Shown: positions 4,345 to 20,795, numbered from the stretch's first letter. The stretch is 64,000 nucleotides of DNA from an uncultured delta proteobacterium (GCA_963769935.1 CAVYNY010000003.1:44341-108340), one strand, 5' to 3'. Notes: generated from the letters alone by a model not told the origin. Numbers and translations: made by a program.

Positions 4345-4428
4345 AGAATGTCCACTTAAAATCCAATCAGGTCAGGTAAAGCAGACTTTAACCCTACCCT
4401 GCCGATCCCCTCTCCCTGGCATTTCTAT

Positions 4429-4457
4429 GTAGACCAATTTTATGACTGGCGCGTCTA
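4429..4457 (+). promoter_or_regulatory. putative ECF promoter, motif 1 (GTAGAC-N17-CGTCTA)
   Basis: Upstream of the ECF gene at 4646; same spacing as the copies at 13998 and 20233. Confidence 0.6.
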
Positions 4458-4645
4458 TAAGGTAAAAATCCGAAATTCATGCAAGCGGTCGATTTGGTAA
4501 GATTTTTTAGTTTGAAGGCGGATGGAAATCTGATGGTGGTTAAGTAAACATGGACAATTCAGATGCGGACCGGATATCATGAGTTTCAAATTGATGCAAA
4601 AAGTGTTGCCGCACAATGTACAAACGTGATTTCCAAGCTCCTGAA

Positions 4646-5266
4646 ATGGCTCCATCAGATAAAACCACCACGACCTCTGAAACCTCCGACCAGCTGTTCT
4701 TGCTTGTTGAACAGGCTAAGGCAGGGAACCGCTCGGCCTTCGCCCAGCTGGCCGACCGATTTCATGAAGATATTTATCGCATGGTTTACTACCGCATCAG
4801 ATCCCGTCCCGATGCTGAGGATATTACCCAGGATGTGTTTTTAAAGATATTTCAAAAAATATCCGGCATCAAAGAGACGGCCAAGTTTCGCGGTTGGCTT
4901 TTTAGCATCACGCTGAACCGAATTCGGGATTTTCAGCGCAAAAAACGATTCCGGTCATTATTCAAGGCCGAGGATGAAAGTATAGAGTCGCACGCGCCCG
5001 AACAAAGCGACCAAGATCAGCCTGATGCGCTGGACCATGTTTTAAAAAAGGATTTTTGGCGACAAATCGGTTTGATCCTGAACAAACTGTCAAAAATGGA
5101 AAAAGAAGTCTTTTTGCTGAGGTTTTTTGATCATCTCAGTTTAACTGAAATCGCGGGCGTCTTAAAAAAAAACGAAAGCACGGTCAAAACCCATCTGTAT
5201 CGCGCGCTCGCCAAATTTAAAAGTGAACCCGCAATGCGACGCCTTCTCAATGAGGTTAACAAGTGA
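4646..5266 (+). CDS. ECF RNA polymerase sigma factor (ECF-1)
   Basis: Region 2 DAEDITQDVF...FRGWLFSITLNRIRD; region 4 LSLTEIAGVLKKNESTVKTHLYRA. Start could be 4616. Confidence 0.92.
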   Translation: MAPSDKTTTTSETSDQLFLLVEQAKAGNRSAFAQLADRFHEDIYRMVYYRIRSRPDAEDITQDVFLKIFQKISGIKETAKFRGWLFSITLNRIRDFQRKKRFRSLFKAEDESIESHAPEQSDQDQPDALDHVLKKDFWRQIGLILNKLSKMEKEVFLLRFFDHLSLTEIAGVLKKNESTVKTHLYRALAKFKSEPAMRRLLNEVNK

Positions 5267-5817
5267 ACTCAAATGACAACCACCATTTGGACGAGAATCA
5301 ATTTATTAAAGCGGTAGTGGATGCATCCGACCTGCCGGAGGCCGTGCAGGCGCATTTGTTCACCTGCACTCAATGCCGGAACAGAAGGCAAAACTTTGAG
5401 CGGGAATTGACCAGTTTAGGCCAAATTGCCGGGCTGTCGGTACCGAAACCGCAAAGACGGATCATTTTGCCGGCGCAAAAGTCCACAATCAGATTCTCAA
5501 GTTTCTTGGATTGGCGCAGCGTTATTGTGGCAGCGGCGACGGTTGCCGCTGTATTTATGGTTGTGTGGGGCACCAACATGGCACGCAATTTTTCCGAGCA
5601 CCGAACCGAAAACCTGACAGCGGAAATACGGGATGCCAATCGACCCATGAGCGAAGTCAACTCGCTTGTTGAAAATGCGCTGCCCCCATTTTATTTAGAA
5701 ATCGCAGATGAACCAAAACCAGATTACGATGAAGAGTTTTATCAATTTTTGATTCCGCCTGTTGAAGATAAAACCGTAACCTCTGAGCAAGGGAATCGAG
5801 GAACTTCATTATGCTAA
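5263..5817 (+). CDS. putative membrane-anchored zinc-binding anti-sigma factor
   Basis: HLFTCTQC (HxxxCxxC), one TM helix, overlaps the sigma gene stop. Confidence 0.7.
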   Translation: MNSNDNHHLDENQFIKAVVDASDLPEAVQAHLFTCTQCRNRRQNFERELTSLGQIAGLSVPKPQRRIILPAQKSTIRFSSFLDWRSVIVAAATVAAVFMVVWGTNMARNFSEHRTENLTAEIRDANRPMSEVNSLVENALPPFYLEIADEPKPDYDEEFYQFLIPPVEDKTVTSEQGNRGTSLC

Positions 5818-6218
5818 GAAAGATATTCAGTGTCATCTTGCCGGTCATTTTTCTGGTTGCTCCATTGATTGCCGCGGCTCAGCACGGTCCAAGAGGCAAA
5901 TGGTGGCATAACCCCCAGATTCAAAAGAATTTGAATTTGAACGAAAATGAAATCGGCAAATTGGACCAGCTTTTTGCCAACATCCGCCCCAACCTGATCA
6001 AGCTTAAAACGGATGTCGAGCGCGAGCAATTTGAACTGGATCAACTCCTGAGCAAAAAAAAGGTCGACGATGCTGATGTTAAAAAGCAGTTCCAAAAACT
6101 GGAGCAAGCCCGTAAAAATCTTTCCAACGCACGCCTTGACTTTGTGATCGGCGTTCGCAACATACTCGGTGCCGATCGCTTCCAGCAGCTCAAGTCCAAC
6201 TTTCAGAAGTGGCAGTAG
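5811..6218 (+). CDS. periplasmic Spy/CpxP/heavy-metal-sensor-like helical protein
   Basis: Signal peptide ending AAAQ, then GKWW..P...LNLNENEI and a helical hairpin; third gene of the ECF module. Confidence 0.7.
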   Translation: MLRKIFSVILPVIFLVAPLIAAAQHGPRGKWWHNPQIQKNLNLNENEIGKLDQLFANIRPNLIKLKTDVEREQFELDQLLSKKKVDDADVKKQFQKLEQARKNLSNARLDFVIGVRNILGADRFQQLKSNFQKWQ

Positions 6219-6276
6219 AAAAAATTTTTCGCAACTCGGCCGGTAAGGACTTTTTTCTCCGTGGCACGGCAAAATT

Positions 6277-7026
6277 ATGGATCCGGCAGCAATTCTCGCT
6301 TCACGCGACATCCTGCAAAAAATAGAAACCGTTTGCAGTCGACAGTTCTCTGCTGAAAACGACCGGGATGAGTGTTACATCTTCGTGCTTGACAGCCTCA
6401 AGGCCGACGATTTTAAGCGGCTGCGGGCCTTTAAAGGCAAAAGCAAATTATCCACCTATCTGTATTCTCTGATCAACTCCCTGGTTATTGATTTCAGACG
6501 CAAAAAATACGGCCGCCGGCGTGTCCCGGCCGCCGTGTTAAAACTCGGCAAGTGGGCTGAGGCAGTCTACCGGCTGGTGTGCTGGCAAAAGTTTTCCTTT
6601 GATGACGCCTATGATTTTCTGCGGGTTGACGGCCTGTATGACGGCAACTATGATCAGTTCATACAGGAGATCGAGGCGATCCGGAATGCACCCTGCCGGG
6701 AAAATCCGACTTTTAAATCGATCGATGAACCAGACAGAAATTCGGTCCAGCATATGGAAGCTTCAGGCGCCGATCCGCTGGAGGACCTGATACAAGCGCT
6801 TGACAGGGAAAAAAGAATCACAGCCCTCAGGGTTATTCGCGCAACAACGGAGGCACTGCCGGAGCCCGATCAGATTCTGGTCAGGCTGGTGTTCGGCTCG
6901 GGGCAGCCGCTAAGTGCGGCTGCCAAAATCATCAACCTTTCTGCATCCGCAGCCCGCAAACGGCTGCAGACTCTTTTATTAAAATACAGAGAAAGTTTGC
7001 TGGCCATTGGTATCCGCGAGCCGTAA
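6277..7026 (+). CDS. atypical ECF-like sigma-70 factor (ECF-2)
   Basis: FKGKSKLSTYLYSLINSLVIDFRRK (region 2) and LPEPDQILVRL..GQPLSAAAKIINLSASAARKRL (region 4), with a long insert between them. Confidence 0.75.
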   Translation: MDPAAILASRDILQKIETVCSRQFSAENDRDECYIFVLDSLKADDFKRLRAFKGKSKLSTYLYSLINSLVIDFRRKKYGRRRVPAAVLKLGKWAEAVYRLVCWQKFSFDDAYDFLRVDGLYDGNYDQFIQEIEAIRNAPCRENPTFKSIDEPDRNSVQHMEASGADPLEDLIQALDREKRITALRVIRATTEALPEPDQILVRLVFGSGQPLSAAAKIINLSASAARKRLQTLLLKYRESLLAIGIREP

Positions 7027-7039
7027 AATGTCCGTCTAA
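7012..7039 (+). promoter_or_regulatory. putative ECF promoter, motif 2 (ATCCGC-N11-TGTCCGTCTAA)
   Basis: Spans the ECF-2 stop and precedes the anti-sigma gene; near-identical to 7887-7913. Confidence 0.6.
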
Positions 7040-7095
7040 TTACTCTGCCTGATTATATTTTACTAGGTATGTTTAACAATTGAATAGAGGCAAAA

Positions 7096-7683
7096 ATGGG
7101 AAAATGGATCAATAAAAGCATGGCGCCAGCCGTTTCAGAGCAATCCGCTAATCATCCGGCCATCGAAGATATCGCGCGGCTGGCGGAAGGCAGGGTCGAG
7201 CAAGCTGAACGGGAACAATTCCTGCGCCATCTCAACCGATGCCAAAGATGCTACGAAATCCTGCAGGAAACCCTGATAGACATTGCCTCCGCCAGGCCTT
7301 TGCCAAAGGTTTCCGGTCCCTGGTGGAAATCCAAAATCTTTTATGCCTTGGCTGCCTCAATTTTACTGGTCATTATCATCGGCGGGCGCCTGGTATTTGA
7401 ACACCGCAATCAACATCCCCGGATCATAACCGCCACACTTGATATGGATCAGGAGTTAAAGGACATCCTGCTGGAAGGCGACACCCTGCGGTGGGAGAAG
7501 GGACCGCGGCTAAGCCGGCTGGTGGCTGCTCTGCACAAAAAAGGTCTGCAATTTAATGATCTGAAAGCTGCTATCCTTGCGCAACCCTACTATCAGAAAA
7601 AAAGCCTGTTCGGTCCCGGGGAAGTCCTTCATATTCGCATCGAGAATGGCGTGGCCTATCTGAAGGTTAAAGAAAAAAACTAG
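7096..7683 (+). CDS. zf-HC2 anti-sigma factor-like membrane protein
   Basis: HP..EDIARLAEG...HLNRCQRC, TM segment ALAASILLVIIIG, periplasmic tail. Confidence 0.75.
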   Translation: MGKWINKSMAPAVSEQSANHPAIEDIARLAEGRVEQAEREQFLRHLNRCQRCYEILQETLIDIASARPLPKVSGPWWKSKIFYALAASILLVIIIGGRLVFEHRNQHPRIITATLDMDQELKDILLEGDTLRWEKGPRLSRLVAALHKKGLQFNDLKAAILAQPYYQKKSLFGPGEVLHIRIENGVAYLKVKEKN

Positions 7684-7886
7684 CTTTATGCCCTGCAAAT
7701 ATATTTAAGTAGTCGACGGGAATACTCAATTAGAGTTGCAGCTTTGAACATAAAAAATTCCAAGCCCCAAATAACTGCTTTTTGGAATTTGAAATTTGCG
7801 ATTTAGACCTACCTTGTCCCCTTCCCTCTATTCTCAATCCCTTTCGAAAAAAGACATCCCACTCAAAAAAAAATAATGAATTATTG

Positions 7887-7913
7887 ATCCGCCATTACCA
7901 TCTGTCCGTCTAA
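7887..7913 (+). promoter_or_regulatory. putative ECF promoter, motif 2 (ATCCGC-N10-TGTCCGTCTAA)
   Basis: 55 nt upstream of the 7969 start; shares 11 identical nt plus ATCCGC with 7012-7039. Confidence 0.6.
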
Positions 7914-7968: not shown

Positions 7969-8817
7969 ATGTTAAAAGTGACGTTCAGCAGCTCGGCCCC
8001 GAATCCTCCAATTCGAACATGGCGTTGGGTGTTTCTTGGATTGGCCGTTTTTATTTTTACTGTCCCGGGATTTCCGGCAGCTGCGAAACAACCCCCTACC
8101 ATTCAGCTGTTTCCAACCACGGTGGTGGAAAATATCAAGCACACCGGAGAGGCGGCCAAAGCCATGGAACAGGACCTTCAGAGTGTGATTGACCGCCTGA
8201 ATCAGCAGGAGGAGCTTTACCTGGCGAGCAAGTGCGAAGGGGCCGCAGCCGAACAGGGCTGCAATGAAATCGCCGGACAGCTGAGTCAAACCTATCTGGA
8301 GATGCTGACCTTGATGGAAACCCGCCTGCCGGGGATGGAGGATTCGGTCCGGGCCACGAATACCAGCCTGGAAAGACGGATTCGCACGGAGTTGGGCCGC
8401 AAAACAACTCCCCGTGGTCTGCAAAAACTTGTAGATGGAACGCCGCAGCAATCAACTGAGTCTCCCCGCTACAAGCGAAGGGCGGGAAGACTGAGCGAAA
8501 AGTTCAGACAGTATTACAAACTGGTAGCCATGGCCCCCGGATCGGGCGCGGGTGGATCACTGGCGGCAGTCGCCGCTGAAATTTACCTTGATACCCAGGA
8601 AGTGCAGGAACTTATTGCCCTCACCCGCGATGAAATCAGCCGCGCCAAACTCATGATTGATCTCGATCAGGCATACGGCATCATCACGCCGGAAATGTTT
8701 GAGATGGTCGGCCGGGTGAAAACGATTATATTTGGCGAGACCGGAGAAGCGGAAGGCATACCCAGTCCGCCGGCCGGCAGCGCTAAAGCAGAATATCGCA
8801 GCCCCCTTGAGATGTAA
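7969..8817 (+). CDS. exported alpha-helical/coiled-coil protein of unknown function
   Basis: GAGGAG RBS, signal peptide ending PAAA, Cys pair (SKCEG...QGC), long helical segments. Confidence 0.75.
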   Translation: MLKVTFSSSAPNPPIRTWRWVFLGLAVFIFTVPGFPAAAKQPPTIQLFPTTVVENIKHTGEAAKAMEQDLQSVIDRLNQQEELYLASKCEGAAAEQGCNEIAGQLSQTYLEMLTLMETRLPGMEDSVRATNTSLERRIRTELGRKTTPRGLQKLVDGTPQQSTESPRYKRRAGRLSEKFRQYYKLVAMAPGSGAGGSLAAVAAEIYLDTQEVQELIALTRDEISRAKLMIDLDQAYGIITPEMFEMVGRVKTIIFGETGEAEGIPSPPAGSAKAEYRSPLEM

Positions 8818-8854
8818 CTATGGAGGCGTTCGCCTATAACCGGAGGGTGTTATT

Positions 8855-9427
8855 ATGATTAAGCTACAAAGTAAAATGAATGCCTGGCGTTTCGACCAAA
8901 TTTTTCTGATGTTGATAGTCCTCGCACTTTTTCCGGCGGCCTGCGGGAACCGGCAATATGTTAAACCCGGCTGCACGCTGCCTTCCGGCGTAAATCTTGA
9001 AGAAGCGTTGGCGCACTCAAGAGAAGATCTTGGGCACCTGGAGTGCGAAACCATGTTTGACGGTTACTATATTAGACTCATTGAAGTCGCCAAACGCGAC
9101 CCCGCAATACAAAACAAGCGCAAGTTCAGCGATTTTTTGGAATGGGCCAATGGGGAAGGCATTATCGATAAGATCCAGGCTCGCGACTACTATAATCGCT
9201 ACTTCAATACCACCTTCATGTCTCTGCCGGACGATTTTAATGTTTGCTCATCCTGCGCCGAGAAAACCCAAAAAGATCTCGAATCCCAGCTGGAAGAAGA
9301 ACTCGGCCAGAAAGAAGAAGGGCTGTTGAGAGCGTGCCAGGATAAAAACGCCTATTACCTTGCGGCTGATCAATATAACTCCATCATGCTGCTGCTGGAC
9401 GCCACCTGCACTGCCTGTCGGAACTGA
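8855..9427 (+). CDS. Cys-rich lipoprotein of unknown function
   Basis: GGAGG RBS, lipobox-like FPAAC, further Cys residues including CSSC and CTAC. Confidence 0.7.
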   Translation: MIKLQSKMNAWRFDQIFLMLIVLALFPAACGNRQYVKPGCTLPSGVNLEEALAHSREDLGHLECETMFDGYYIRLIEVAKRDPAIQNKRKFSDFLEWANGEGIIDKIQARDYYNRYFNTTFMSLPDDFNVCSSCAEKTQKDLESQLEEELGQKEEGLLRACQDKNAYYLAADQYNSIMLLLDATCTACRN

Positions 9428-9472
9428 TATGACAAGCGAATGTCAGATAATGCTGAGCATCAGGACTGAATA

Positions 9473-9570
9473 ACACGGACTGAGCAACGAGGACTGAGGA
9501 CAGAGATGGAAAAAATTCGAGCGATGCAAACAGCGATACGTTCAGTCCTCAGCCCTCAGCCCTCATCACT
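9473..9570. repeat. inverted heptamer arms (GGACTGA / TCAGTCC-TCAGCCC)
   Basis: ggactga-type units on the left and complementary tcagtcc/tcagccc units on the right. Confidence 0.6.
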
Positions 9571-9607
9571 TTTTCGAGCAGAAACTAAATTTTAGGGAAT
9601 TCATACG

Positions 9608-10321
9608 ATGGAAAACAGATCTCATTCCGTCACGGTCTTTTCAGCCGGCTTTATCACCGGCGCCCTGGGAGTGCTGGTTATCGGCGCTGCGATGCTTTAC
9701 ATGTTGAACATGTCTGAATTTGTTGCCATATCCGTGTTGAAAATTCCCAGGGTTCAAAGGGTGCTGACGTGGACCTATGAGAATCTCAGACTCTCGATCA
9801 TCCCCTTTTTCTTTACTTCGCTGCTGTATACCGGCTCTCTTCTCCGCTTAAAGCGTTATCTGAAAGATCAGCGCACTCCGGTGGAAAAGATTGCCCAGAG
9901 CGAGCAGCTGGTTGATATCTGGATCAATCTATTCTTCGGGATCGGGGTAATTTGGACGGCCATCGGCATGCGCGGCGCCTTGCTGGACGGAGTCGGTGAC
10001 TTGAATGCCCAATCGGCAGCACAGCTGGGCGCCTTTTCGATCCTGCAACGATTGGTGGACGGCGGAATTTTGCTGGCATTATCCACCACCATCTTCGGTG
10101 CCGTCGGCGGCTATCTGCTGCGCCTGATTAAATCCATGGCGGTGGGTACCCAGGTGAAAGCTTATTACAATCGACTGGCAGAGCAGCAGGCCGACTCAGT
10201 TCATAAAGCCCTGCAATCCATCGACGGGCGGGTCCAGGAATTGGTGGGGATACAGAAAAATTTAAATAACTTGGCGAACACAACCGATGAAGGTAAAGCT
10301 ATCCGTCCGCCGGTTATTTAA
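9608..10321 (+). CDS. MotA/TolQ/ExbB-like proton-channel membrane protein
   Basis: Four hydrophobic segments; LFFGIGVIWTAIGM and GILLALSTTIFG resemble the ExbB/TolQ GLLGTVxGM and ALxTTxxG helices. Confidence 0.65.
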   Translation: MENRSHSVTVFSAGFITGALGVLVIGAAMLYMLNMSEFVAISVLKIPRVQRVLTWTYENLRLSIIPFFFTSLLYTGSLLRLKRYLKDQRTPVEKIAQSEQLVDIWINLFFGIGVIWTAIGMRGALLDGVGDLNAQSAAQLGAFSILQRLVDGGILLALSTTIFGAVGGYLLRLIKSMAVGTQVKAYYNRLAEQQADSVHKALQSIDGRVQELVGIQKNLNNLANTTDEGKAIRPPVI

Positions 10322-10450
10322 AGAAATGCAGGCATCAGGTGTTGAGAAAAAGCAAAAATATCAGAAAGGTTTCAATCCCTGCACACCGCAACGGACAATG
10401 GACAAACGACAGCGGACTTTGAATAATTGGCGCTCAATTTGGAGCAATCG

Positions 10451-11287
10451 ATGCACCCTTTATATCCATCGCCAATATCTCTTATCCGGCCCGAGGCTTC
10501 CTTTTCAAATGAGGTGGAAGTGCTGCAGACGGATGTCATGCGATTTTTTGCGATATTATGTCTGTGCCTGATGGCGATATTTGCTCTGGTCAAAACCCTG
10601 CCCATGGCCCCTTCGACCGGTCCTCCCACGATGGTCGAACCCACGGACCTTAAAGCAGATGTCGAAGCTCTGCAAAAACACATTGCCATGCTCAAAGAGA
10701 GGCTTGGGCAGTTAAGGACCCAAGTTCAGGCCGCCGCCGTCGACGCCGAAAAATCAACGACCGTGGCTGCCGTTGCGGAAAAAAAAATTAAAGATGAAAC
10801 GCAACACCTGGCAGAGATACAGGCAAAACTGAAGCGGGAAAGAGTAAAATTGAATCAACCTCGGTCGGAGAAAAAACCGGCTGAAATATTACCGGCTGAG
10901 CAAAAAAATCCGCCGCCTCAGACCGTCAGGCAAGGATTCAGCTTGCGTTTTGCCTCGGATGCGGCGCTGCAAAAGCTGATCGACAGCGGGAAAGTAAATT
11001 TTTATGCATTAGCCGGGAAAAAAGCCTGGCAATTGCACCTGAGAGACGGACAGCCGGTCTATTCGTCGACCCGATTTCCCAGTCAAATTCATGAAATGCA
11101 GACTCCCACCGTTCCCACTGAGTATACCGGGGCTTTTCACCGGCAGGTAGCGGCGTTCGGCCGCACCACGGTGACCTGGGGGGTGACGCTGCCTTCCCCA
11201 ACTATGTCATCCATTAACCAGCTCATCAAAAGCCGACCCGGGGGTGATCTGATCATCACCGCGGCCGGCGAGGTCGTTATAAAATGA
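10451..11287 (+). CDS. MotB/ExbD-like single-pass protein with periplasmic coiled coil
   Basis: GGAG RBS before ATG 10451; N-terminal TM with an Asp at its start (QTDVMRFFAILCLCLMAIFALV), then a coiled coil and a globular C-terminus; follows the MotA-like gene. Confidence 0.55.
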   Translation: MHPLYPSPISLIRPEASFSNEVEVLQTDVMRFFAILCLCLMAIFALVKTLPMAPSTGPPTMVEPTDLKADVEALQKHIAMLKERLGQLRTQVQAAAVDAEKSTTVAAVAEKKIKDETQHLAEIQAKLKRERVKLNQPRSEKKPAEILPAEQKNPPPQTVRQGFSLRFASDAALQKLIDSGKVNFYALAGKKAWQLHLRDGQPVYSSTRFPSQIHEMQTPTVPTEYTGAFHRQVAAFGRTTVTWGVTLPSPTMSSINQLIKSRPGGDLIITAAGEVVIK

Positions 11288-12882
11288 CAACCACCAACAA
11301 CATCGGGACCGGGATCCGGCCGTACATTTTACTCTTGATTTTTATAGGGTTGTCGGCCTGCAGCGGCCATCAGGTGTACCATGAAGTTGGACTGCCGGCC
11401 GGCGGATCGTCGCTTGATACCTGGCTGGAAGATACCCTTATTCCATACCTGCTCCAGCAACTCAGCCAGCACCCGCGCTTTAAAGGCCAACCCATTTTGT
11501 TGGTCGGCCTGCGCGGCGATGAGGTCCGCTCCCGCGCAGATGACTTGACGGGAGAGATCCGATCAAAAATCGGCGACGCGCTGCTGAAACAACCCGGTCT
11601 CGATCTTGCCTGGCAACCGACCGGCCCGCCACGAGAACACCATCAACGTCTCGCGGATGTCTCCTGTGGCACTTACCGCAAAATCCAATATTACATCGGT
11701 CTGGACTGCGGTTTGACCCGATTGGAGGGCAAGCTTTATGTAAAAGTGCGGGCCTTGAACCTTGCCGAACAAAAATGGGTGACCGGCTTCGGCAAATCAT
11801 GGGAAGGGCGGCCGACCGCAGCCCAGCTGGCGGCTCTGGCGCGCGAACATCCGGATGAATATTTGCGGGGTCGGCGCCAGCTGCCGTTTTCCGAGGAGCA
11901 GCCGGATTTGTTGGCTGCCTATTTGGCCCGCAATCTAAGCTGTGTTTTGCGGCAGGCCGAATCCGATAATCTGGTGGTGCATGTTGCCAAACCATCCGCA
12001 AATTCCCCGGCAGTCTTTAAAACGGCCCTGGAACTTGTGGGAAACTACCTGGCGCGTTTTCGGGAGGTGGAAGTAACCGATGATCCGAACCAGGCCAATA
12101 TCACCCTGGTATGCGAAATCCATGCCATCCATCAAGGCTTGCACCAGATCTGGGTCTCTGCCAGACACCGCCGTGATGAAAAATATCTGCCCGGCGCAGA
12201 GACTGAAGCGTATGTGTTGATTGATGCCCATGAACAGATGCAGGTCGCCGGCGCGCAGAATGCAAGACCTTATGCGCCCCTGCCCTCCGCCGCGCGCCTA
12301 TCGAATTCATCTGAACTAATAGCATCATTTGATCTACTGACGCCGATGAATCAGAATTCATGTTCAACCGGCGCTCCCTGGCAGTCTGGTGTACGGCGGA
12401 TTGACTCCCAGGAACGTATTCCGGGCGGCGGCTGTCTGGCCGTAGAAATGACGCTTTCGGCGGCGGCTTATGTTTTTTTGGTGGGTCAGGATGCCGGTGG
12501 TGAATTAACGCAAATGTTTCCATCTGTCTGCACCGGCCGGCAGGAAAATGATGCCCTGCTCCATCCCGGTCAGCTATTTCAATTTCCATCACTTTCAGAT
12601 CCCAACGCCGGGGTACTGGAACTTACCGGTTCGCCCGGCAGGGAACGGGTTTTTGCAATTGCCATAACAAGCCCGGATCTGGCCGATCGATTTGCCGACC
12701 GGCTGGTGGAAGTCCAGGACCTGTGCCGACCCGGCAAAATATTTGCCGATAACCTAATAGCCGGTAATAGCCGAACCTCTGCCGAAGGTATTTATCAATG
12801 GCAAGACTACTTGATCCGGCTTTCGGCTGATAATCCCGGTTTGGTCCAGTGGCAGGCAATCAGCTTCTGGCACGAGCCGTAG
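11284..12882 (+). CDS. lipoprotein with C-terminal DUF4384-like domain
   Basis: Lipobox GLSAC; alpha/beta N-terminal domains; LAVEMTLSAAAYVFLVGQDAGGELTQMFPS...PGRERVFAIA; overlaps the upstream stop. Confidence 0.65.
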   Translation: MTTTNNIGTGIRPYILLLIFIGLSACSGHQVYHEVGLPAGGSSLDTWLEDTLIPYLLQQLSQHPRFKGQPILLVGLRGDEVRSRADDLTGEIRSKIGDALLKQPGLDLAWQPTGPPREHHQRLADVSCGTYRKIQYYIGLDCGLTRLEGKLYVKVRALNLAEQKWVTGFGKSWEGRPTAAQLAALAREHPDEYLRGRRQLPFSEEQPDLLAAYLARNLSCVLRQAESDNLVVHVAKPSANSPAVFKTALELVGNYLARFREVEVTDDPNQANITLVCEIHAIHQGLHQIWVSARHRRDEKYLPGAETEAYVLIDAHEQMQVAGAQNARPYAPLPSAARLSNSSELIASFDLLTPMNQNSCSTGAPWQSGVRRIDSQERIPGGGCLAVEMTLSAAAYVFLVGQDAGGELTQMFPSVCTGRQENDALLHPGQLFQFPSLSDPNAGVLELTGSPGRERVFAIAITSPDLADRFADRLVEVQDLCRPGKIFADNLIAGNSRTSAEGIYQWQDYLIRLSADNPGLVQWQAISFWHEP

Positions 12883-13084
12883 AGAAAGGACACTAATTGT
12901 ATTTGAATTGAAAATACTCTGCTGCCGATGTCGGAAGGATCCATTTTGACCAAATGGCGCAAGGCAGACGGCGCAGGGTATTTGTGCTCGTCTTAATATG
13001 ATGCCATTAGCTCGGGTAACAGGTAGTCCATGAGGTGCAGTTCACAACCGGTAACCCGAGACACGCACCTCGTAAGCCGAAACA

Positions 13085-13125
13085 CGTAACTCGCAACCCG
13101 TAACTCGCAACCCGTAACTCGCAAC
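13085..13125 (+). repeat. tandem 14-bp (2x7) repeat CGTAACTCGCAACC, about 3 copies, with degenerate copies from about 13045
   Basis: cgtaactcgcaacc cgtaactcgcaacc cgtaactcgcaac, directly abutting ATG 13126. Confidence 0.85.
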
Positions 13126-13949
13126 ATGACTCAACTGCACATTATCACTAAACTAATTATCTGCCTGGCCTTGCTTGGATATGGTCAACAGGCGGCAGGC
13201 GCCCTTAAAGAAGCCGGATCGGATATTGAGGCGCTGTGGCGCCTTTTTCTGGCCAACGATGCGCTGAAATCCCCTGTGATCAGTTTCCCTTATGATCACT
13301 GTTTTAATACGGCCGCCCAAAAATATGATCTACCTTTATCACTTCTTCTGGCCGTGGCGCGCGGTGAATCCGACTTTAATCCCAGAGCCCGGTCGGATCG
13401 CAACTGCCACGGATTGATGCAAATCCAGTGGCCCGGAACAGCCAAACATCTGGGAATCTATCGACTTGCGGCGCTGTATGAGCCGTGCACCAATATTAGC
13501 GCCGGAGCCCGATATCTGAGGGAGCTTATGGACCGCTATGATCAAAATCTGCATCTGGCCCTGGCGGCATACAACTACGGGCCGAATCGCATCCAGCCCA
13601 AAGCCGGACCGGGCCGTATTCCTCAGGGCGCCCAATGGTACAGCGGCTATATTTACCATCACCTGGAATTTGTCACCCAGGGGGGGACGCCGCATCCGGC
13701 GGCGCAGCGGGCAAAGGGTCGGCCTACGGCCGTGAAAAGCGGCTGGCAATCATAACGTTTAACCGGCCATATCGAGCGAGCGCATTTTACCGGCACCTTC
13801 AAGAACAGGCACCTGCGCTGAAACTCGATTGGTATCGTATCGGTTTGGGAAGGTTTCAGGTGGTGATGCGGTTCACGGATAAAAAAGCACTGGAAGCCGG
13901 CCGCAAAAAATTAAGAACTCTGGGAGTGATCGTCAAAGCCAGGAAATGA
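13126..13949 (+). CDS. exported SLT-family lytic transglycosylase, apparently frameshifted at a G7 run (ORFs 13126-13755 and 13635-13949)
   Basis: VARGESDF, GLMQI, GARYL and ALAAYNYG motifs; one extra G in the run at 13680-13686 joins it to a plausible small alpha/beta (SPOR-like) C-terminal domain. Confidence 0.75.
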
Positions 13950-13997
13950 GATGGAATGCCGGACCAATGATGTTGAAAAAATCAGCTAAATTATTTT

Positions 13998-14026
13998 GTA
14001 AACCTTTTTTTAACCTTATACGTCAC
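13998..14026 (+). promoter_or_regulatory. putative ECF promoter, motif 1 (GTAAAC-N17-CGTCAC)
   Basis: Intergenic, upstream of the caspase gene at 14394. Confidence 0.5.
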
Positions 14027-14126: not shown

Positions 14127-14280
14127 CTCACCGCTGAGAGTCACAGAGAGCGCAGAGATTACATTAAAATTTTCTTTCGTCGGCGTTCTCGGCAGGCTCT
14201 GCGGTGAACTATCAGTTTCTTTTTCGATCAGATCGGCCGTTGTTTTGACAATGCGGCTTTGGCGCTGAAACCTGACATCT
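14127..14280 (+). repeat. dispersed composite palindromic repeat, family B
   Basis: Aligns by eye with the reverse complement of 26122-26296. Confidence 0.85.
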
Positions 14281-14393
14281 GTTAACCTAATTTTTGCAAT
14301 TTTAAATTATCAACGTTCTCAACTTCTCCCGAATAGAGTCTTGGAAAATGCAAGGGGCAAAATACCTAAAAAGCAAAAATTAGCGGAGTTCTT

Positions 14394-15818
14394 ATGGCTG
14401 ACAAAAATAAAAAGCTCGGCGGTTTTTGGTCCTATCTTCTCTGGCTGCTGCTGATGTCATTGGTCCTCGTTTCAACCTCCAGGGGTGAAGATCGGGCCCT
14501 GCTGATCGGTGTCGGACGGTATGCGCATTTCGAAGAAAAGCTCAACGGCGTCAGTCTGGATCTCGGCATGATGAAAGAATTATCACAACTGATGGGATTT
14601 AAGGAACATGCAATTAAGGTGCTGGAAAATGAGCAGGCATCTACCGCCGGGGTTAATGAGGCGATTGAAGACTGGTTGATTCGGGGCACCGGACCGCAGG
14701 ACCGGGTCCTGTTTTATTTCAGCGGGCACGGCTCCCAGGTTCCGGATGAAAACAACGATGAAAAGGATCATTTTGATGAAGTGCTGCTGCTCTATGATGT
14801 GACCCTCACGGAAAGGCAAGGCCGGCAGACATTGAACGGTGTTTTGCTCGATGATCAATTCGGCAGCATGCTGGCAAAAATCAAAAGCCGCAACATTCTG
14901 GTCATTCTCGATGCCTGCCACAGCGGCAGCGCAACCAGGAGCATCCGGCTGACCACCCGGTCTATTCCGATACACAACGCTCAGGTGAAATACTTCTATT
15001 ATTCGCCGATGCTGGAGGCAGCCGGCGGCAGCGGCCGGTTCGATGTGATGGAGCCGGATGCTTCACCGGCGGCTGCAGGCCGCTATGTGGCAATTTCGGC
15101 CTGCCGCGACGATGAGATGACGCTTGCCACCGCCCAGGGAAGCATATTCACACTCGGGCTGCGCGAGACCTTGCGTGCGGCGGCCAGGGCCGGAAAAAGC
15201 ATTTCGCCCGCAGAATTACAGCGCCGGACGACCCGATTCATTCAGGAACAAATAGGATCCGAAGGGGCTGCATTTCATCCCCAGATTGCCGGCCAAAAAT
15301 CCCTTCTTGAGCGTCCTTTGGAACTGGTCTCACTTGCCGGAGGAAGCGGCCCGGTGCGTCAAAATCTGGAAGCATTGATGCATAAAAGCCATGAAACCGT
15401 CTGGATCAATTTAAACAAAATCTGTTTTGAACCTGGCGACGTACTTGAAATATCCGTCAGATTATCCGAACCGGGGTATTTGAATGTCGTCAGTGTTCGT
15501 CCGGATGATCAGGCCACGGTGCTGTTTCCAAACCAATATCACCGACAGAATGCCGTTGACCGGGGCGCGTTGACCCTACCCACCCGTCAGATGAACTTTG
15601 AATTGGTGGCCGACGGCCCCCCGGGCACCATTCTGATAACGGCCTTTCTGACCCCTTCACCGGTGGACGGCTACAAAAACGGCTTCAAGACCCCGGAGGA
15701 TGTGATGGCGGGTCTCTCACCCGGTACAACGCGCTCCTTGATGCTGCGCCAAAACCAGGACTGGCTGGCCGCCGGCAGGGTAGCCGTTGAAATGCGGGAA
15801 AAAGGAGGATGCAGGTGA
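14394..15818 (+). CDS. exported caspase-family (C14) peptidase with C-terminal DUF4384-like domain
   Basis: Signal peptide; RALLIGV, FYFSGHG (His), ILDACHSG (Cys); FEPGDVLEISVRLSEPGYLNVV..LFPN. Confidence 0.88.
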   Translation: MADKNKKLGGFWSYLLWLLLMSLVLVSTSRGEDRALLIGVGRYAHFEEKLNGVSLDLGMMKELSQLMGFKEHAIKVLENEQASTAGVNEAIEDWLIRGTGPQDRVLFYFSGHGSQVPDENNDEKDHFDEVLLLYDVTLTERQGRQTLNGVLLDDQFGSMLAKIKSRNILVILDACHSGSATRSIRLTTRSIPIHNAQVKYFYYSPMLEAAGGSGRFDVMEPDASPAAAGRYVAISACRDDEMTLATAQGSIFTLGLRETLRAAARAGKSISPAELQRRTTRFIQEQIGSEGAAFHPQIAGQKSLLERPLELVSLAGGSGPVRQNLEALMHKSHETVWINLNKICFEPGDVLEISVRLSEPGYLNVVSVRPDDQATVLFPNQYHRQNAVDRGALTLPTRQMNFELVADGPPGTILITAFLTPSPVDGYKNGFKTPEDVMAGLSPGTTRSLMLRQNQDWLAAGRVAVEMREKGGCR

Positions 15819-16696
15819 AATATTTTTTCAAGTTTATCGCTGTCTTGTCGCTAATAATTTTTACCTGTATTCCCGTGGCGACCCGTATTTCAGCTGCTAT
15901 GGACTGCCGTCTGGGTGCTGATTACTACTACCAGGCCAAATCCGAAGCCGATCCGCAGCAGGCTATCCTCTGGTTGAAGCGGTCGGCGCAAGTATGCCCC
16001 AATTTCAATGCCTGGTATATGCTCGGGATGATATACACCCGCCAAGGAGAAATTGATCCCGCCATGGCCGCTTTTATGCGGGCCAGGACCCAGGCTGTTT
16101 CCTCCAAAACCGAAGCCCTGGCCCTGGCCCGCCAGGGCGAACTGCTGGCCCGCTCCGGTCAGCTGCCCCGGGCCCAGCAGGCCCTGGAACTGGCTGGACG
16201 GTTTTATCCTGCACCTGCGCCGGCTTGGCTGGAGGCATCTCTTAAGAATACCAGAATTAAACTGCAGCAGTCGCTGATAACAGCAGCCGATATCAAGTAT
16301 GTACTTGAATCCGGCACGCAATTAAGCAAAGACGGCCGATTTGCGGTTCGCCCGGCAGTGAACCTGCCGGTGCACTTTGACTTCGACCGGGCGGATCTGA
16401 ATTCAGCCGGCAGCCGTCAGGTGATGGAACTGGGTGGTGCCCTTTCCCACGCAACATTGAAGCAGTGGTCTTTTCTGCTGGTCGGCCATACCGACAAGCG
16501 CGGATCCATGGCCTACAATCAGACGCTCTCCGAAAGTCGCGCCTCTTCGGTAAGGATAGAATTGGAACACAGCTTTCCTTCGCTCATCGGCAGGCTGCAA
16601 GCCATGGGACGCGGCGAGACCGAATTACTGTACGACGGCGACAGCGAAGAAGATCATATGCTCAATCGCCGCGTGCAGGTGACGCTTTATCATTGA
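15809..16696 (+). CDS. exported TPR + OmpA-family peptidoglycan-binding protein
   Basis: TPR-like AWYMLGMIY..QGEIDPAMAAF; VHFDFD, VGHTDKRG, YNQTLSESRA, NRRV. Confidence 0.88.
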   Translation: MQVKYFFKFIAVLSLIIFTCIPVATRISAAMDCRLGADYYYQAKSEADPQQAILWLKRSAQVCPNFNAWYMLGMIYTRQGEIDPAMAAFMRARTQAVSSKTEALALARQGELLARSGQLPRAQQALELAGRFYPAPAPAWLEASLKNTRIKLQQSLITAADIKYVLESGTQLSKDGRFAVRPAVNLPVHFDFDRADLNSAGSRQVMELGGALSHATLKQWSFLLVGHTDKRGSMAYNQTLSESRASSVRIELEHSFPSLIGRLQAMGRGETELLYDGDSEEDHMLNRRVQVTLYH

Positions 16697-16875
16697 AAAT
16701 TGAAGATTGAAGATTGAAGATTGAAGATTTATGGAGTCGCCTCGCTCCAACTTTCAATTTAAATATTTTCAAAACCAAATCCGTTTGCAGCAAGATGTTT
16801 AATTGATAATGCGATATTTAAAATTTTGGCTAAAATCGATAGGATTCCGCCAATTTTCAATCTTCAATTTTCAAT
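16692..16875. repeat. dispersed repeat family A (ATTGAAG heptamer arms, GTCGCCTCGCTCC core)
   Basis: Tandem attgaag units with inverted ttcaat units at the far end; related to 28751, 52284 and 53613. Confidence 0.85.
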
Positions 16876-16914
16876 AAATTACATTTCACCCTGATTAGGA
16901 ATCTGTTTGTACCA

Positions 16915-19900
16915 ATGATTAGAGGACATAAAAAAATAGCGCTGTTGACGATATTGCTCTGGCTGGCCGGCGGCATTTCCCTGCCTGCCCTTGCTGAAAA
17001 TCATGCCCTGCTGATCGGTATCGGCAAATACCGGCAGCGCACACTGGAGGGGCCGCCCTATGATGTTGCGGCGCTTTCTCGAGTGCTTGCGGCGCAGTAT
17101 GATTTTCAAAAGGAAAATATCCGTACGCTCGTAAATGAAGAAGCCGTCAAGTCCAGAATCCTTTCTGAGATCGAGCGTCTGACGCATCACACCCATCCCG
17201 GAGACCGGGTATTCATTTATTTCAGCGGTCACGGAACCAGCCGCCGGGATGAAGTGCTGGCGCTTCCGCTGCCGTACAGCACCGGTGCGCTGGTGCCGGC
17301 TGATTTTGAGGCTGATCCCGCTCAACCGGTTGAAAAACTGCTGTCGCAGCTGATCATCGGCAGACGCGACCTGCGGCCGGCGCTGGAGCGACTTGATCGG
17401 GACCGACAGGTCCTGATGGTTTTTGATACCTGTTTTTCAGGCAATACCATCCGAGCCATTGGAAATCATAAAACCGCAAATTTAAGCCGCTACCTCCCGC
17501 TGCCGTCAAGAAGTGTCTTCAAAGCGGAGCGGGAAATTGGAAGCTTTGAGGAAAATTTGAATCTGGATGACCCATATCCCTATCAAAATATTTTTTATAT
17601 TTCGGCGGCTTCGGAAAATGAAGTCGCCAAGGATATCCAAAAAGATACCTTGGACTTATATCCGACCATTGACGGCAATCCCCATGGGGTTCTGACGGAC
17701 GCCCTTTTAAGGGTGCTGGCGGGACAAATGCGCGTCGACACCGACAACGACGGCCGGTGGAGCCAGATTGAGCTGTATGCGGCTGTCAAAAAAGAGGTTC
17801 AACGGCGCTTCCAACAATCGCCGCAGGCCTTGCCCAAGGTAGGGACCCGCACCGATCGGCTGTATTCGAGAACCTTTTTTGTGCGTTCGGCAAAAGCGGT
17901 TGCCACAGCAGGCGGGCACCCGGCCGAACCGGCGCCCGGCCGCCAGGGCGCGAATTATCAATCGGGTTATTCTTCTTCCCATGCGCTGGTGGTTGGCATA
18001 AACGAATATCGACACTGGCCGCGGCTCGAATATGCCGCCAATGATGCCAGGGCAATGGCCGCCAGGTTGAAAGCACAGGGCTTTCAGACTTACCTGCTCA
18101 CCGATGAGCAGGCCACGCTGAAAAATATTCTGGCCGGACTGGAAACGATTCGCCGCAGCATTGATGAGAATTCACGGATGATGTTCTATTTTGCCGGGCA
18201 CGGTCAGACCGAGGACCTGCCTGGAGGACGGGAAAGAGGGTATATCGTGCCGGTGGATGCGGATGCCTACAACTGGCAGCGTACGATGCTGCCCATGGAT
18301 CGGTTGAATCAAACTATCAGGCAGTTCAAAGCCAAACATATCCTTATGGCCTTTGACTCCTGTTACTCCGGACTGGGGTTGACTCGCTCGATAAAAGGTC
18401 GTCCCGATCCGGATTCCGCCTACATTCAGAAAATGATGCACTCCCGAAGTATTCAGATACTGACAGCGGGCAGCCGTTCCGAGCAGGCCATTGAAGCTGC
18501 CGGCCACGGACTGTTCACGGACCAACTGCTGGCCGCCCTCGCGGGGGCGGCGGATATTAATTCCGACGGATACATTACGGCGACCGAAATTTATGCCACC
18601 CTGCGTCCGGCCATAACCCAGAAGTCCTATAGCCGCCAGACCCCGCAGTTCGGCTATATCGAGGGCAACGGCGATATTATTTTTCTTAATACTTCCCGCG
18701 AACCAGAACCTGCCGCCGTTGTTGTTGATACTGCAATTAGCGGCATCGACGTATGGGCCGGCACCTCTGAAATCGGTCACCGCCTGCCGGCCGGACGGCA
18801 TCAGTTACCGGCTCTTGCGGGGCAAACAGCTCTGATCGTTAAAAAGGGCGGACGCACCCTTTATCGAAAGAATGTGCTGCTGTCCGCCAACAGGGTGTTT
18901 TCAATCCAGATCGGCGCAACCATTGCGACATCACACCCGCCGGAAGCATTTTCCACGATTACTATTGCCAATCATAGCGTCGACAATTATTCAAATTCGA
19001 TTGCCTATGATCTGGACGGTGACGGCCGGGAGGAGATGGTGACCGCCTCGGATAACCGGCTTTTTGCTTTCAGGTCCGACGGCACCATCATCTGGGAAAA
19101 AAAATTCCATTTCCCGATCACCTTGGATCTGATTGATGACTGGAATTCGCAGCCGGCCATTGGGCTGTCCGCCGTGAATGAGGATACAGTTCACCTGGTG
19201 CTGCTTGACCAGCGGGGAGAGCAAATTTGGCAGCATGTCCGAAAACTTACCCGCTATTACAACGGCAAAACCGACGGCGGGGGAAAGATTGCCGGGCTGG
19301 CGGACGTCGACCGGGACGGCCGCCAGGACGTCGTGGCCTTTGCCACGGCAGAATACACCTTAAAGCCCCGCGGCATCATCGTGTACGACGGTCGTGCCCG
19401 TGAACTGTGGCGCTACACAATCGGACCCGCTCCACAAAGCATCGTTGTCTGGCAAAAAGATTCAGGACGACCCGACATCATCATCGGAACGTACAGCCCG
19501 GGCGACGGAAATCGCGACTTAACCAACAACACCAGCGATATGCAAACCTACATCATCAGTGTCGACGGTTTTGGCAAAGCAAACTGGCAGATCCCGGTCG
19601 GCGGGTTTTACAGCGGGGTTGTCGTGCTGCCGGCCGGTCTGAAGGACCCTGCCCGTCGCTTTCTTTACGCCCATACCTATACGTCATCTCTTTATCGGGA
19701 AGATGTCGGCGCCATATATAAGATCTCACGATCCGGTCAAGTTCTTAATCGCTTTGAGACCCAAAATTCAATTTTAAGTGTGGCGGTTGCTGAAGCTGAC
19801 CAAAATGGACGGGAATATCTGTATGCGGCCGATAACAAGGGCAACCTGTTAAGACTGGATGAGCGCTTGAATCTGCTCCAGAGAAAGCCCTTGACTGCTG

Positions 19901-20223
19901 GACCGGCTGCTTCCCAGGTCAGACTGGTGGGGGTTCATGATTATGACGGCGATGGTTATAAAGACCTATTGCTTTACTCCTTTAATCGCCTGCTGTCCGC
20001 CAAGAATCCTCTGGCAGAAACGGGTCCGAATGACGCCGGGTTCTTCTCCCAGTTAAAGTTTCAGGTCATTTCAAAGGACTTTTCCAGGGTTTTGAAGAGT
20101 GTAACCATTGCCGCAGAATGGGAAAAATGGCGGGGATTTGCCGTCAAGGACCTGGACCGACCGGATACGACGTATTATCCGTTTATGGCACTGAGCGATA
20201 AATTAACGATATTTAACTACTAA
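16915..20223 (+). CDS. exported tandem double-caspase protein with FG-GAP/VCBS-like beta-propeller
   Basis: Signal peptide; domain 1 YFSGHG/FDTCFSG; domain 2 YFAGHG/FDSCYSG; DxDxDG motifs (YDLDGDGREE, ADVDRDGRQD, HDYDGDGYKD). Confidence 0.88.
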   Translation: MIRGHKKIALLTILLWLAGGISLPALAENHALLIGIGKYRQRTLEGPPYDVAALSRVLAAQYDFQKENIRTLVNEEAVKSRILSEIERLTHHTHPGDRVFIYFSGHGTSRRDEVLALPLPYSTGALVPADFEADPAQPVEKLLSQLIIGRRDLRPALERLDRDRQVLMVFDTCFSGNTIRAIGNHKTANLSRYLPLPSRSVFKAEREIGSFEENLNLDDPYPYQNIFYISAASENEVAKDIQKDTLDLYPTIDGNPHGVLTDALLRVLAGQMRVDTDNDGRWSQIELYAAVKKEVQRRFQQSPQALPKVGTRTDRLYSRTFFVRSAKAVATAGGHPAEPAPGRQGANYQSGYSSSHALVVGINEYRHWPRLEYAANDARAMAARLKAQGFQTYLLTDEQATLKNILAGLETIRRSIDENSRMMFYFAGHGQTEDLPGGRERGYIVPVDADAYNWQRTMLPMDRLNQTIRQFKAKHILMAFDSCYSGLGLTRSIKGRPDPDSAYIQKMMHSRSIQILTAGSRSEQAIEAAGHGLFTDQLLAALAGAADINSDGYITATEIYATLRPAITQKSYSRQTPQFGYIEGNGDIIFLNTSREPEPAAVVVDTAISGIDVWAGTSEIGHRLPAGRHQLPALAGQTALIVKKGGRTLYRKNVLLSANRVFSIQIGATIATSHPPEAFSTITIANHSVDNYSNSIAYDLDGDGREEMVTASDNRLFAFRSDGTIIWEKKFHFPITLDLIDDWNSQPAIGLSAVNEDTVHLVLLDQRGEQIWQHVRKLTRYYNGKTDGGGKIAGLADVDRDGRQDVVAFATAEYTLKPRGIIVYDGRARELWRYTIGPAPQSIVVWQKDSGRPDIIIGTYSPGDGNRDLTNNTSDMQTYIISVDGFGKANWQIPVGGFYSGVVVLPAGLKDPARRFLYAHTYTSSLYREDVGAIYKISRSGQVLNRFETQNSILSVAVAEADQNGREYLYAADNKGNLLRLDERLNLLQRKPLTAGPAASQVRLVGVHDYDGDGYKDLLLYSFNRLLSAKNPLAETGPNDAGFFSQLKFQVISKDFSRVLKSVTIAAEWEKWRGFAVKDLDRPDTTYYPFMALSDKLTIFNY

Positions 20224-20232
20224 CAGACGACG

Positions 20233-20261
20233 GTAAACAAAATCGACGCGTCGTGCGTCTA
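20233..20261 (+). promoter_or_regulatory. putative ECF promoter, motif 1 (GTAAAC-N17-CGTCTA)
   Basis: Upstream of the glycine-zipper lipoprotein gene. Confidence 0.6.
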
Positions 20262-20357: not shown

Positions 20358-20795
20358 GTGAAAACAATATCAAAAGGCATTTTTATTTTAATTGGATTGG
20401 TTATTGTTGCATCATGCGCCGGCCGACAATACGATCGTTACAATACCCAGCGCGGTGCGGCAATCGGCGCCGGCTTTGGCGCACTGACGGGACAGCTTAT
20501 CGGCCGCGATACCAGAAGCACGCTTATCGGTGCCGGTGTCGGGACCCTGGTGGGCGCTATCTTCGGAAACGCAGTTGATCAGGAGCGCCAGATTGCCAGA
20601 GAAGCGGCCGTAACGAATAGAAGAATTGTTTACTACGATCAGCAGGAAGGCCACGCTCTCGAAGCGATCCCCGGCCCCGAGGACCGGCACACAAAATGCC
20701 GCAAAGTAACCAAACGCGAGTGGGACAAGGGGTATCTTGTCAGCGAGCGAGTTGAAGAAATTTGTGAGGGGGAAAAGGTATCACAAATGTATTAA
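20358..20795 (+). CDS. glycine-zipper lipoprotein
   Basis: AGGAGG RBS, lipobox VASC, GAAIGAGFGALTG...GAGVGTLVGAIFG. Confidence 0.85.
   Translation: MKTISKGIFILIGLVIVASCAGRQYDRYNTQRGAAIGAGFGALTGQLIGRDTRSTLIGAGVGTLVGAIFGNAVDQERQIAREAAVTNRRIVYYDQQEGHALEAIPGPEDRHTKCRKVTKREWDKGYLVSERVEEICEGEKVSQMY

Follow-up and report, generated by a model that had tools for sequence, protein, structure and literature searches.

Pairs of an ECF sigma factor and a ZAS membrane anti-sigma factor, for example SigW-RsiW and SigL-RslA, work through a zinc-binding anti-sigma mechanism, and in the group 3 sigma factors (FliA/sigma28, SigB, sigma32) region 3.0 reads the extended -10 element. In Escherichia coli, the available text of PMC8595263 describes rseA P3 as a sigmaE-dependent promoter for the anti-sigma gene alone, with sigmaE also driving rpoE P. 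For phage ECF sigma factors, which have an extended -10 and a weak or absent -35, the accessible part of PMC5333181 proposes a segment just C-terminal of sigma2 as the reader of that extension. Other described systems bring together a sigma factor, an anti-sigma factor and caspase-type proteases at one locus with a small local regulon: operons of sigma-70 factors and metacaspases were noted in 2012, without a motif (PMC3501461); in Myxococcus xanthus DdvS, of the DdvS-DdvA pair, is autoregulated and has the motif GTAA-N16-CGT (PMC6061681); and a further system is CASP-sigma/Csx30 (PMC10028731; bioRxiv 10.1101/2022.08.17.504292). The locus described here resembles these systems in both respects, but it differs from DdvS in motif and in autoregulation and from CASP-sigma/Csx30 in having no CRISPR genes, and the available portions of PMC3501461, PMC6061681 and PMC10028731 describe neither the inserted domain nor the box motif reported below. 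PADLOC gave no match for the sigma factor at the center of this study or for its anti-sigma factor.

The window (the whole stretch of 64,000 nt that was analysed) contains, on the plus strand, a canonical ECF sigma gene, ECF-1 (4616-5266; PF04542 at residues 46-111 and PF08281 at 149-200, 37 aa apart), a predicted anti-sigma gene for it (5263-5817; HxxxCxxC, one TM helix, a weak NF052375 match), a gene for a Spy/CpxP-like secreted protein (5811-6218; PF13801, E 2.7e-9) and, after a gap of 58 nt (6219-6276), the gene of a 249-aa sigma-70-family protein (6277-7026). The definition of the ECF Hub, as given in the available text of PMC7826278, sets the distance from sigma2 to sigma4 at no more than 50 aa. 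ECF-1 fits it, with the two domains within 50 aa and no sigma3. The 249-aa protein, which the sequence-only reading had called a second ECF ("ECF-2"), has sigma2 and sigma4 and no Pfam sigma3 (PF04539) at E 0.05, but falls outside the definition by its spacing: sigma2 (Pfam 47-77) and sigma4 (186-231), both below the Pfam cut-off, are separated by about 108 aa. The protein scores 45.3 bits against TIGR02937 (cut-off 42.9), its fold search gave Z 10.2 for sigma4 against sigmaE region 4 and Z 7.4 for sigma2, and its best PDB sequence matches, over sigma4, are FliA and SigF (E 7e-5 and 1e-4). The predicted build runs from sigma2 (about 1-77) through a helical insert (about 78-140) and a linker that is flexible to sigma4 (about 166-246); structure models place a helical domain at about 85-136 between sigma2 and sigma4 (pLDDT 82).

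The coding stretch of the inserted domain (6505-6696, plus strand) starts with a conserved G-R-x-R-x-P. Among 21 diverse sequences the segment right after sigma2.4 is strongly conserved (G79 100%, R80 90%, R82 85%, P84 100%, G91 100%), the exposed sigma4.2 positions 223, 224 and 225 stand at 23-28%, and the mean conservation of insert residues 92-136 is 0.46 vs 0.51 for sigma4.2. Searched alone, the insert had a best Z of 5.0, which is weak, with many winged-helix or HTH matches near Z 4, no sigma3 chain among the matches listed (best 50) and no Foldseek match at E 0.001; as these matches are weak, we put forward contact of the insert with DNA as a proposal. In that proposal the inserted helical domain is the likely reader of a TGTC extension of the -10 element. 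The protein resembles group 3 in its length (about 250 aa) and its three folded parts, but it differs from that group in lacking Pfam sigma3, in having no sigma3 chains among the insert matches listed, and in its ECF-type sigma2 and ZAS anti-sigma factor. It likewise recalls the phage ECF sigma factors of PMC5333181, as far as the accessible part describes them, by the extended -10, the place of its candidate reader and a -35 that can be weak or absent; unlike them it is cellular, comes with an anti-sigma factor and a whole folded insert, and has a lineage-specific -35 at its target promoters.

Searches with the sigma profile returned 33 clusters at E 1e-30 and 1,637 at E 1e-10, a family in which the insert is confirmed for part only (it is kept in an aligned sample of 61 sequences); the Atlas neighbours are mostly from Gemmatimonadota and Acidobacteriota. 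We found no account of the box motif or of the 249-aa sigma family in the openly available literature, where motif logos lie outside text search, and the available text of the ECF-group supplement holds none of GTAAAC, GTAGAC and TGTCCG, its logos again lying outside such a search. Homologues indicate that the genome is that of an uncultured member of Desulfobacterales, and it holds one copy each of the sigma gene and of the genes of the operon. The start of the sigma gene (6240-6279) lacks a clear ribosome site: relatives commonly have GGAAA-N9-GTG-x-x-CGGCAA before the sigma start, several of them with ATA, ATC or ACG at the position of the window's ATG, and in the window the upstream GTG is one base out of frame. 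Such a poor translation start may keep the 249-aa sigma scarce.

Two near-identical boxes had been claimed around this gene, and both are present with the spacing and the position that had been described. The pattern ATCCGC-N9..12-TGTCCGTCTAA matches exactly twice in the window, at 7012-7039 (N11; box 1) and at 7887-7913 (N10; box 2), with ATCC-to-CGTC distances of 17 and 16 nt, and box 1 overlaps the stop codon of the sigma gene (7024-7026). None of 100 shuffled window sequences contained any match, the 7.99-Mb assembly holds no third copy, and a Markov model of the genome puts the chance of two copies of the 11-mer within a given kilobase at about 3e-9. The spacers differ, so the identity of the boxes is limited to 17 fixed letters. 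The 10-mer core is not enriched genome-wide (6 sites seen vs 5.1 expected), so its meaning rests on position and conservation; a genome-wide regulon predicted from the core was dropped on these counts, and three relatives hold 16 further core sites, most of them inside ORFs. Box 1 (plus strand), the predicted promoter of the anti-sigma gene, has its core TGTCCGTCTA at 7029-7038 and a weak -35 within the last codons of the sigma gene. Box 2 (7885-7913 with its -35, plus strand), the predicted promoter of the gene run that starts at 7969, has the -35 TGATCC at 7885-7890, then 12 nt and the core at 7903-7912.

Conservation of the motif beside orthologues of the 249-aa sigma gene had been named as a check, and the outcome favours the boxes. 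We collected 91 loci, 81 of them with distinct sigma sequences and many of them close kin. Of 71 junctions of a sigma gene with its anti-sigma gene (4,407 bases searched), 66 hold the core TGTCCGTCTA without a mismatch, and so do 32 of 34 junctions ahead of the orthologue of the 7969 gene. The exceptions are L020, two variants that differ by one letter, and three loci of another family, which have TGTCCGTAT. Spacer and flank positions vary in alignments in which the core is constant, and it is the core, and not ATCCGC as had been supposed, that forms the conserved part of the motif. ATCCGC was also ruled out as a shared -35, since at box 1 it consists of Ile-Arg codons and is replaced in 12 loci with insertions. 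Among 73 loci the Ile codon is ATT 47 times and ATC 26 times; the Arg codon is CGC in 63 of them, vs 23% elsewhere in the sigma gene, a bias that is at best a weak sign of constraint and is confounded by kinship. Upstream of box 2 the consensus is an A-tract followed by TGAYCC 12 nt before TGTC (G in 32 and A in 27 of 33), and G087 and G033 have TGAYCC in the same register.

The letters upstream of box 1 are the final sigma codons, Gly-Ile-Arg. In most close loci the distance from box 1 to the ribosome site of the anti-sigma gene is constant at 8 nt. In the 12 loci with insertions the box 1 -35 is replaced and the core keeps its place before that ribosome site, and in other loci an insertion stands behind the core, the box being tied to neither the sigma stop nor the ribosome site. 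Since its core is kept where the -35 is replaced, box 1 looks like a promoter that relies on its extended -10. In locus L057 a stretch of short tandem repeats (GGGATTGA-type), about 580 bases long, separates the sigma stop from box 1, and there, too, box 1 precedes the anti-sigma gene.

In G087, G033 and L016 (another family) the module is rearranged, and a variant box, TGTCCGTA, heads each separated piece. An apparent array of the variant box in G087 turned out to be a repeated reverse-transcriptase element: L096, L110 and L115 (G087 C1 2.36-2.43 Mb and elsewhere) contain many near-identical copies with a 447-aa ORF, several in tandem at 1,931-bp spacing, which we take to be group II intron-like. 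The gene of a lolC/E-like ABC permease also has TGTCCGTCTA ahead of it, exact in 3 of 12 genomes that carry the sigma and with one mismatch in 1 of 11 genomes without it (the loci are G000 C30:21525-21534, which is L191, and L189, L190 and L192); this site is possibly a recent regulon member, or possibly a chance match in one subclade.

A wider profile added 31 further loci from other orders and classes of Desulfobacterota (the partial match L172 was left out), whose sigma proteins share 22-48% identity with the 249-aa sigma. The box stands before the anti-sigma gene in 26 of 29 of these loci (3 of 29 junctions lack it), and upstream of the sigma gene, on the opposite strand and ahead of a divergent gene, in 19 of 30. 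On the sigma gene's own strand, a box lies upstream in only 1 of 30. The control means after resampling are 0.4 and 1.5, for box patterns that were picked after inspecting the loci, many of which are kin. The -35 element varies by lineage across these homologues: in the order of G435 a strong -35, GACA(C/A)A, goes with a conserved sigma4.2 helix, and the TGT extension decays in some members. Plasmid searches returned one orphan homologue, on a Gemmatirosa plasmid, and were otherwise blank; this homologue, the sole one examined outside Desulfobacterota, has neither an anti-sigma gene nor a box.

The gene behind the sigma gene encodes a predicted membrane anti-sigma factor (7096-7683, plus strand) with an HxxxCxxC motif (H45, C49 and C52, invariant in 29 sequences) followed by one TM helix (81-99) and an outer domain of about 95 aa. 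Motif, helix and gene position are those of a ZAS (class I) anti-sigma factor, and PF13490 matches only at E 0.016; the protein is predicted to bind and inhibit the 249-aa sigma. With the CGTC-type -10, these features liken the pair to SigW-RsiW and SigL-RslA, from which it differs by the added helical domain and the invariant TGTC extension. In the close set a core-like match lies within 400 nt upstream on the sigma gene's strand in 2 of 81 loci (72 have more than 150 nt of flank upstream of the sigma gene). Since the box stands before the anti-sigma gene, faces away from the sigma gene and is almost never placed to serve it, the sigma factor appears to induce its own inhibitor and not itself, as had been claimed; that it drives the anti-sigma gene and the targets without driving itself is well supported by these arrangements. 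Autoregulation may exist in G033, where the sigma gene lies downstream of a 7969-type operon, and in G071, where a box lies 217 nt upstream of one sigma copy. In G071 (C85, locus L095) two copies of the sigma/anti-sigma pair, identical in the sigma sequence, flank a caspase gene and a pair of small HTH genes.

Across genomes the box follows the 249-aa sigma and not ECF-1. Our main reading, to which we assign a probability of about 0.7, is that the boxes are promoters read by the 249-aa sigma through its insert and the TGTC extension, and that they transcribe the anti-sigma gene and the 7969 operon without self-transcription of the sigma gene. The sigma factor would be made from another source (a housekeeping promoter or, in the window, transcription running on from the ECF-1 operon) and sequestered by the zinc-type anti-sigma factor; an envelope signal would release it, likely through proteolysis of the anti-sigma factor; the free sigma would fire box 2, as a full promoter (TGAYCC-N12-TGTCCGTCTA), and box 1, as a core with a weak -35; and the fresh anti-sigma factor would turn the sigma off again, giving a pulse without a positive loop. 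In this predicted scheme box 1 is like rseA P3 of the sigmaE system: either promoter depends on its sigma factor, lies within the sigma gene or at its end, and serves the anti-sigma gene apart from the sigma gene; unlike the 249-aa sigma with its long interdomain stretch, sigmaE is a two-domain ECF, and it drives itself, whereas at the present loci boxes ahead of the sigma gene on its own strand are no more frequent than by chance.

The sequence-only reading had further proposed that ECF-1 transcribes the 249-aa sigma gene by read-through over the 58-nt gap, as a two-tier switch. As a conserved design, this cascade does not stand: of 57 informative loci, 21 show the tandem layout, and the boxes persist where ECF-1 has no match. 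Of the 81 loci, 24 have too little flank to be informative; the 36 non-tandem loci comprise 13 with a different ECF gene (27-38% identity) transcribed away from the sigma gene, 5 with only an outward promoter and 18 with other genes. The gap in the window contains no terminator-like, sigma-70-like, box or ECF-1-motif site, and the 21 tandem loci have gaps down to 23 and 28 nt and fall on several branches of a quick tree, which speaks for read-through. The 249-aa sigma is present in 6 of 6 ECF-1-bearing relatives from the genus; on the other side, 5 of 11 sigma-bearing genus relatives have no ECF-1 match (E 1e-40; 77-90% completeness) and keep the boxes. Likewise, no ECF-1 match was found at E 1e-15 in G087, G033, G071 and G278, and the boxes persist in G087, G033 and G278 despite this. 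In the single-contig genome G273 the ECF-1 orthologue (76%) lies about 870 kb from the sigma gene, which has no ECF-1 motif in the 700 nt upstream. Four loci without the ECF-1 operon (L006, L007, L053, L055) keep TGTAGAC-N17-CGTCCA 214-402 nt upstream on the sigma gene's strand, as a cascade would suggest, but the retained site may be a remnant, as L010, L063 and L017 keep the -35 with a decayed -10.

One RNA-library contig spans 6044-6456 (from one study, DNA origin being possible), in agreement with read-through; it cannot prove a single transcript, and a further contig maps to DNA ahead of the ECF-1 promoter. The RNA data are four contig sets from that one study with 88% likeness allowed, in which depth cannot rank genes. 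On balance we hold read-through in the form of a two-tier switch to be possible, with the odds against it. It is compatible with the box promoters in the window's lineage, where both can be true together, and there it may feed the 249-aa sigma outside any conserved design. The more surprising point is the predicted three-part sigma factor with its extended -10.

Separate motifs for the two sigma factors, on the other hand, were borne out, as the ECF-1 motif (TGTARAC-N17-CGTCWA) differs from the box. An ECF-1-type promoter on the plus strand, TGTAGAC-N17-CGTCTA (4428-4457), predicts autoregulation of ECF-1 and is kept in G270 and G261 and, at 16-nt spacing, in G263 and G265; a second, TGTAAAC-N17-CGTCAC (13997-14026, plus strand), heads the caspase genes and is found as the CGTCA variant in 7 of 8 genomes examined, window included; and a third, GTAAAC-N17-CGTCTA (20233-20261, plus strand), stands before the gene of a small glycine-rich lipoprotein (about 20358-20795). 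The genome has 6 exact sites of GTARAC-N17-CGTCTA vs 0.3 expected, all intergenic and each facing a gene. Other ECF-1-type promoters (G000 C32:254988, C14:3177, C18:282178 and C31:8658) lie before predicted secreted-protein genes, and in L118 (G270 C25) two ECF-1-type promoters stand back to back with overlapping -35 boxes, the one serving ECF-1 and the other a divergent gene for a His-rich secreted protein. At C32:254988 TGTAAAC is joined with the complete TGTCCGTCTAA core, and both sigma factors may read this site.

Because the -10 core CGTCTA is common to the two motifs and 9 of 46 ECF-1-type sites end in GTCCGTCTA, cross-talk is possible. A stronger form of this idea is that one sigma class reads both motifs, so that ECF-1 or a paralogue fires the boxes through CGTCTA and the 249-aa sigma adds little; the shared -10, the 9 sites and the double site at C32:254988 lend it some support, but we consider it improbable, as GTARAC at 17 nt is absent from both boxes in alignments of the box loci, the boxes follow the 249-aa sigma into genomes without an ECF-1 match and change with the sigma, and 6 of 11 genomes that lack the 249-aa sigma have the TGTARAC motif. 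About as improbable is that the box serves another regulator as its operator, or acts as a leader RNA element, and is no promoter, for which the fixed 8-nt distance of box 1 from the ribosome site in most close loci and the dispensable -35 in 12 loci could be cited, but against which the box is asymmetric and always directed at a gene downstream, is preceded at 16-17 nt by a -35 both in box 2 and in the distant clade, lies 20 to >200 nt from the start codon in other loci, and is accompanied by no other regulator gene in the loci read.

Returning to the reading of the boxes as promoters of the 249-aa sigma, the ECF-1 motif also heads the caspase genes, which makes it more likely that the two sigma factors split one envelope island in parallel: the 249-aa sigma would likely serve 7096 and 7969-13949, and the ECF-1 type 14394-20223, with ECF-1, or a paralogue in other genomes, likely reading TGTARAC-N17-CGTCWA ahead of the caspase genes. 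The genes behind box 2, all on the plus strand, encode a secreted helical protein (7969-8817) and a predicted lipoprotein (8855-9427), neither with a family found, a three-TM protein (9608-10321), a single-TM protein with a coiled coil (10427-11287), a second predicted lipoprotein with a DUF4384 (11284-12882; Pfam) and an SLT lytic transglycosylase (13126-13755) with an overlapping ORF (13635-13949). The SLT parts overlap in different frames in the window and form one frame in G263 and G265, so the gene looks frameshifted, either truly or through an assembly error. Then follow three secreted proteins (14394-20223, plus strand) with His-Cys motifs: a caspase-DUF4384, a TPR-OmpA and a double caspase protein with FG-GAP repeats. 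Long imperfect inverted repeats lie in the intergenic regions at 14143-14400 and 16696-16900; the repeat near 14160-14250 recruits many unrelated RNA-library contigs and is thus likely a dispersed repeat.

The 7969 run had been called a motor operon, for which the homology is weak. The 10427 protein has the one TM helix (37-55) and the Asp of such a partner, D36 adjoining the helix and being invariant in 14 sequences, and we infer a MotB/ExbD-like layout; the 9608 protein is weakly MotA/TolQ/ExbB-like, with PF01618 in 1 of 18 family members (E 0.089), Atlas matches of 0.88 and 0.81 that serve as leads only, and no PDB motor match. The three TM helices of the one protein and the Asp beside the TM helix of the other would together suggest an ion-motor pair. 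For Zorya, neither protein matched ZorA or ZorB at E 0.01, and ZorB models match only the OmpA part of the 15809 protein. The 9608 gene and the 249-aa sigma co-occur in the same 11 of 22 relatives, and the cultured Desulfobacter curvatus DSM 3379 is a carrier of the module. From the lytic transglycosylase, the OmpA protein and the secreted caspases, the role of the module is likely envelope remodelling or surveillance.

Taken together, and at what we would call slightly short of even odds, the 249-aa sigma may represent a subfamily of sigma-70 factors that is widespread, unclassified and intermediate between ECF and group 3, with an ECF-type sigma2, a distinct helical third domain that reads TGTC and a sigma4 whose -35 varies by lineage. 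Its wiring would be limited to negative feedback, and in this genus it would run a periplasmic motor-like and cell-wall module beside secreted caspases. ECF catalogues discard sigma factors whose sigma2 and sigma4 lie more than 50 aa apart, and the promoters that they predict are those ahead of the sigma gene; a family with a longer spacing and a promoter behind the sigma gene or facing away from it would therefore be missed. The box motif would give a direct handle on the regulon of this family, and the new domain a testable example of extended -10 reading. The wiring would be a natural pulse-type circuit without positive feedback, and the locus may offer a route to what islands of secreted caspases do in sulfate-reducing bacteria.
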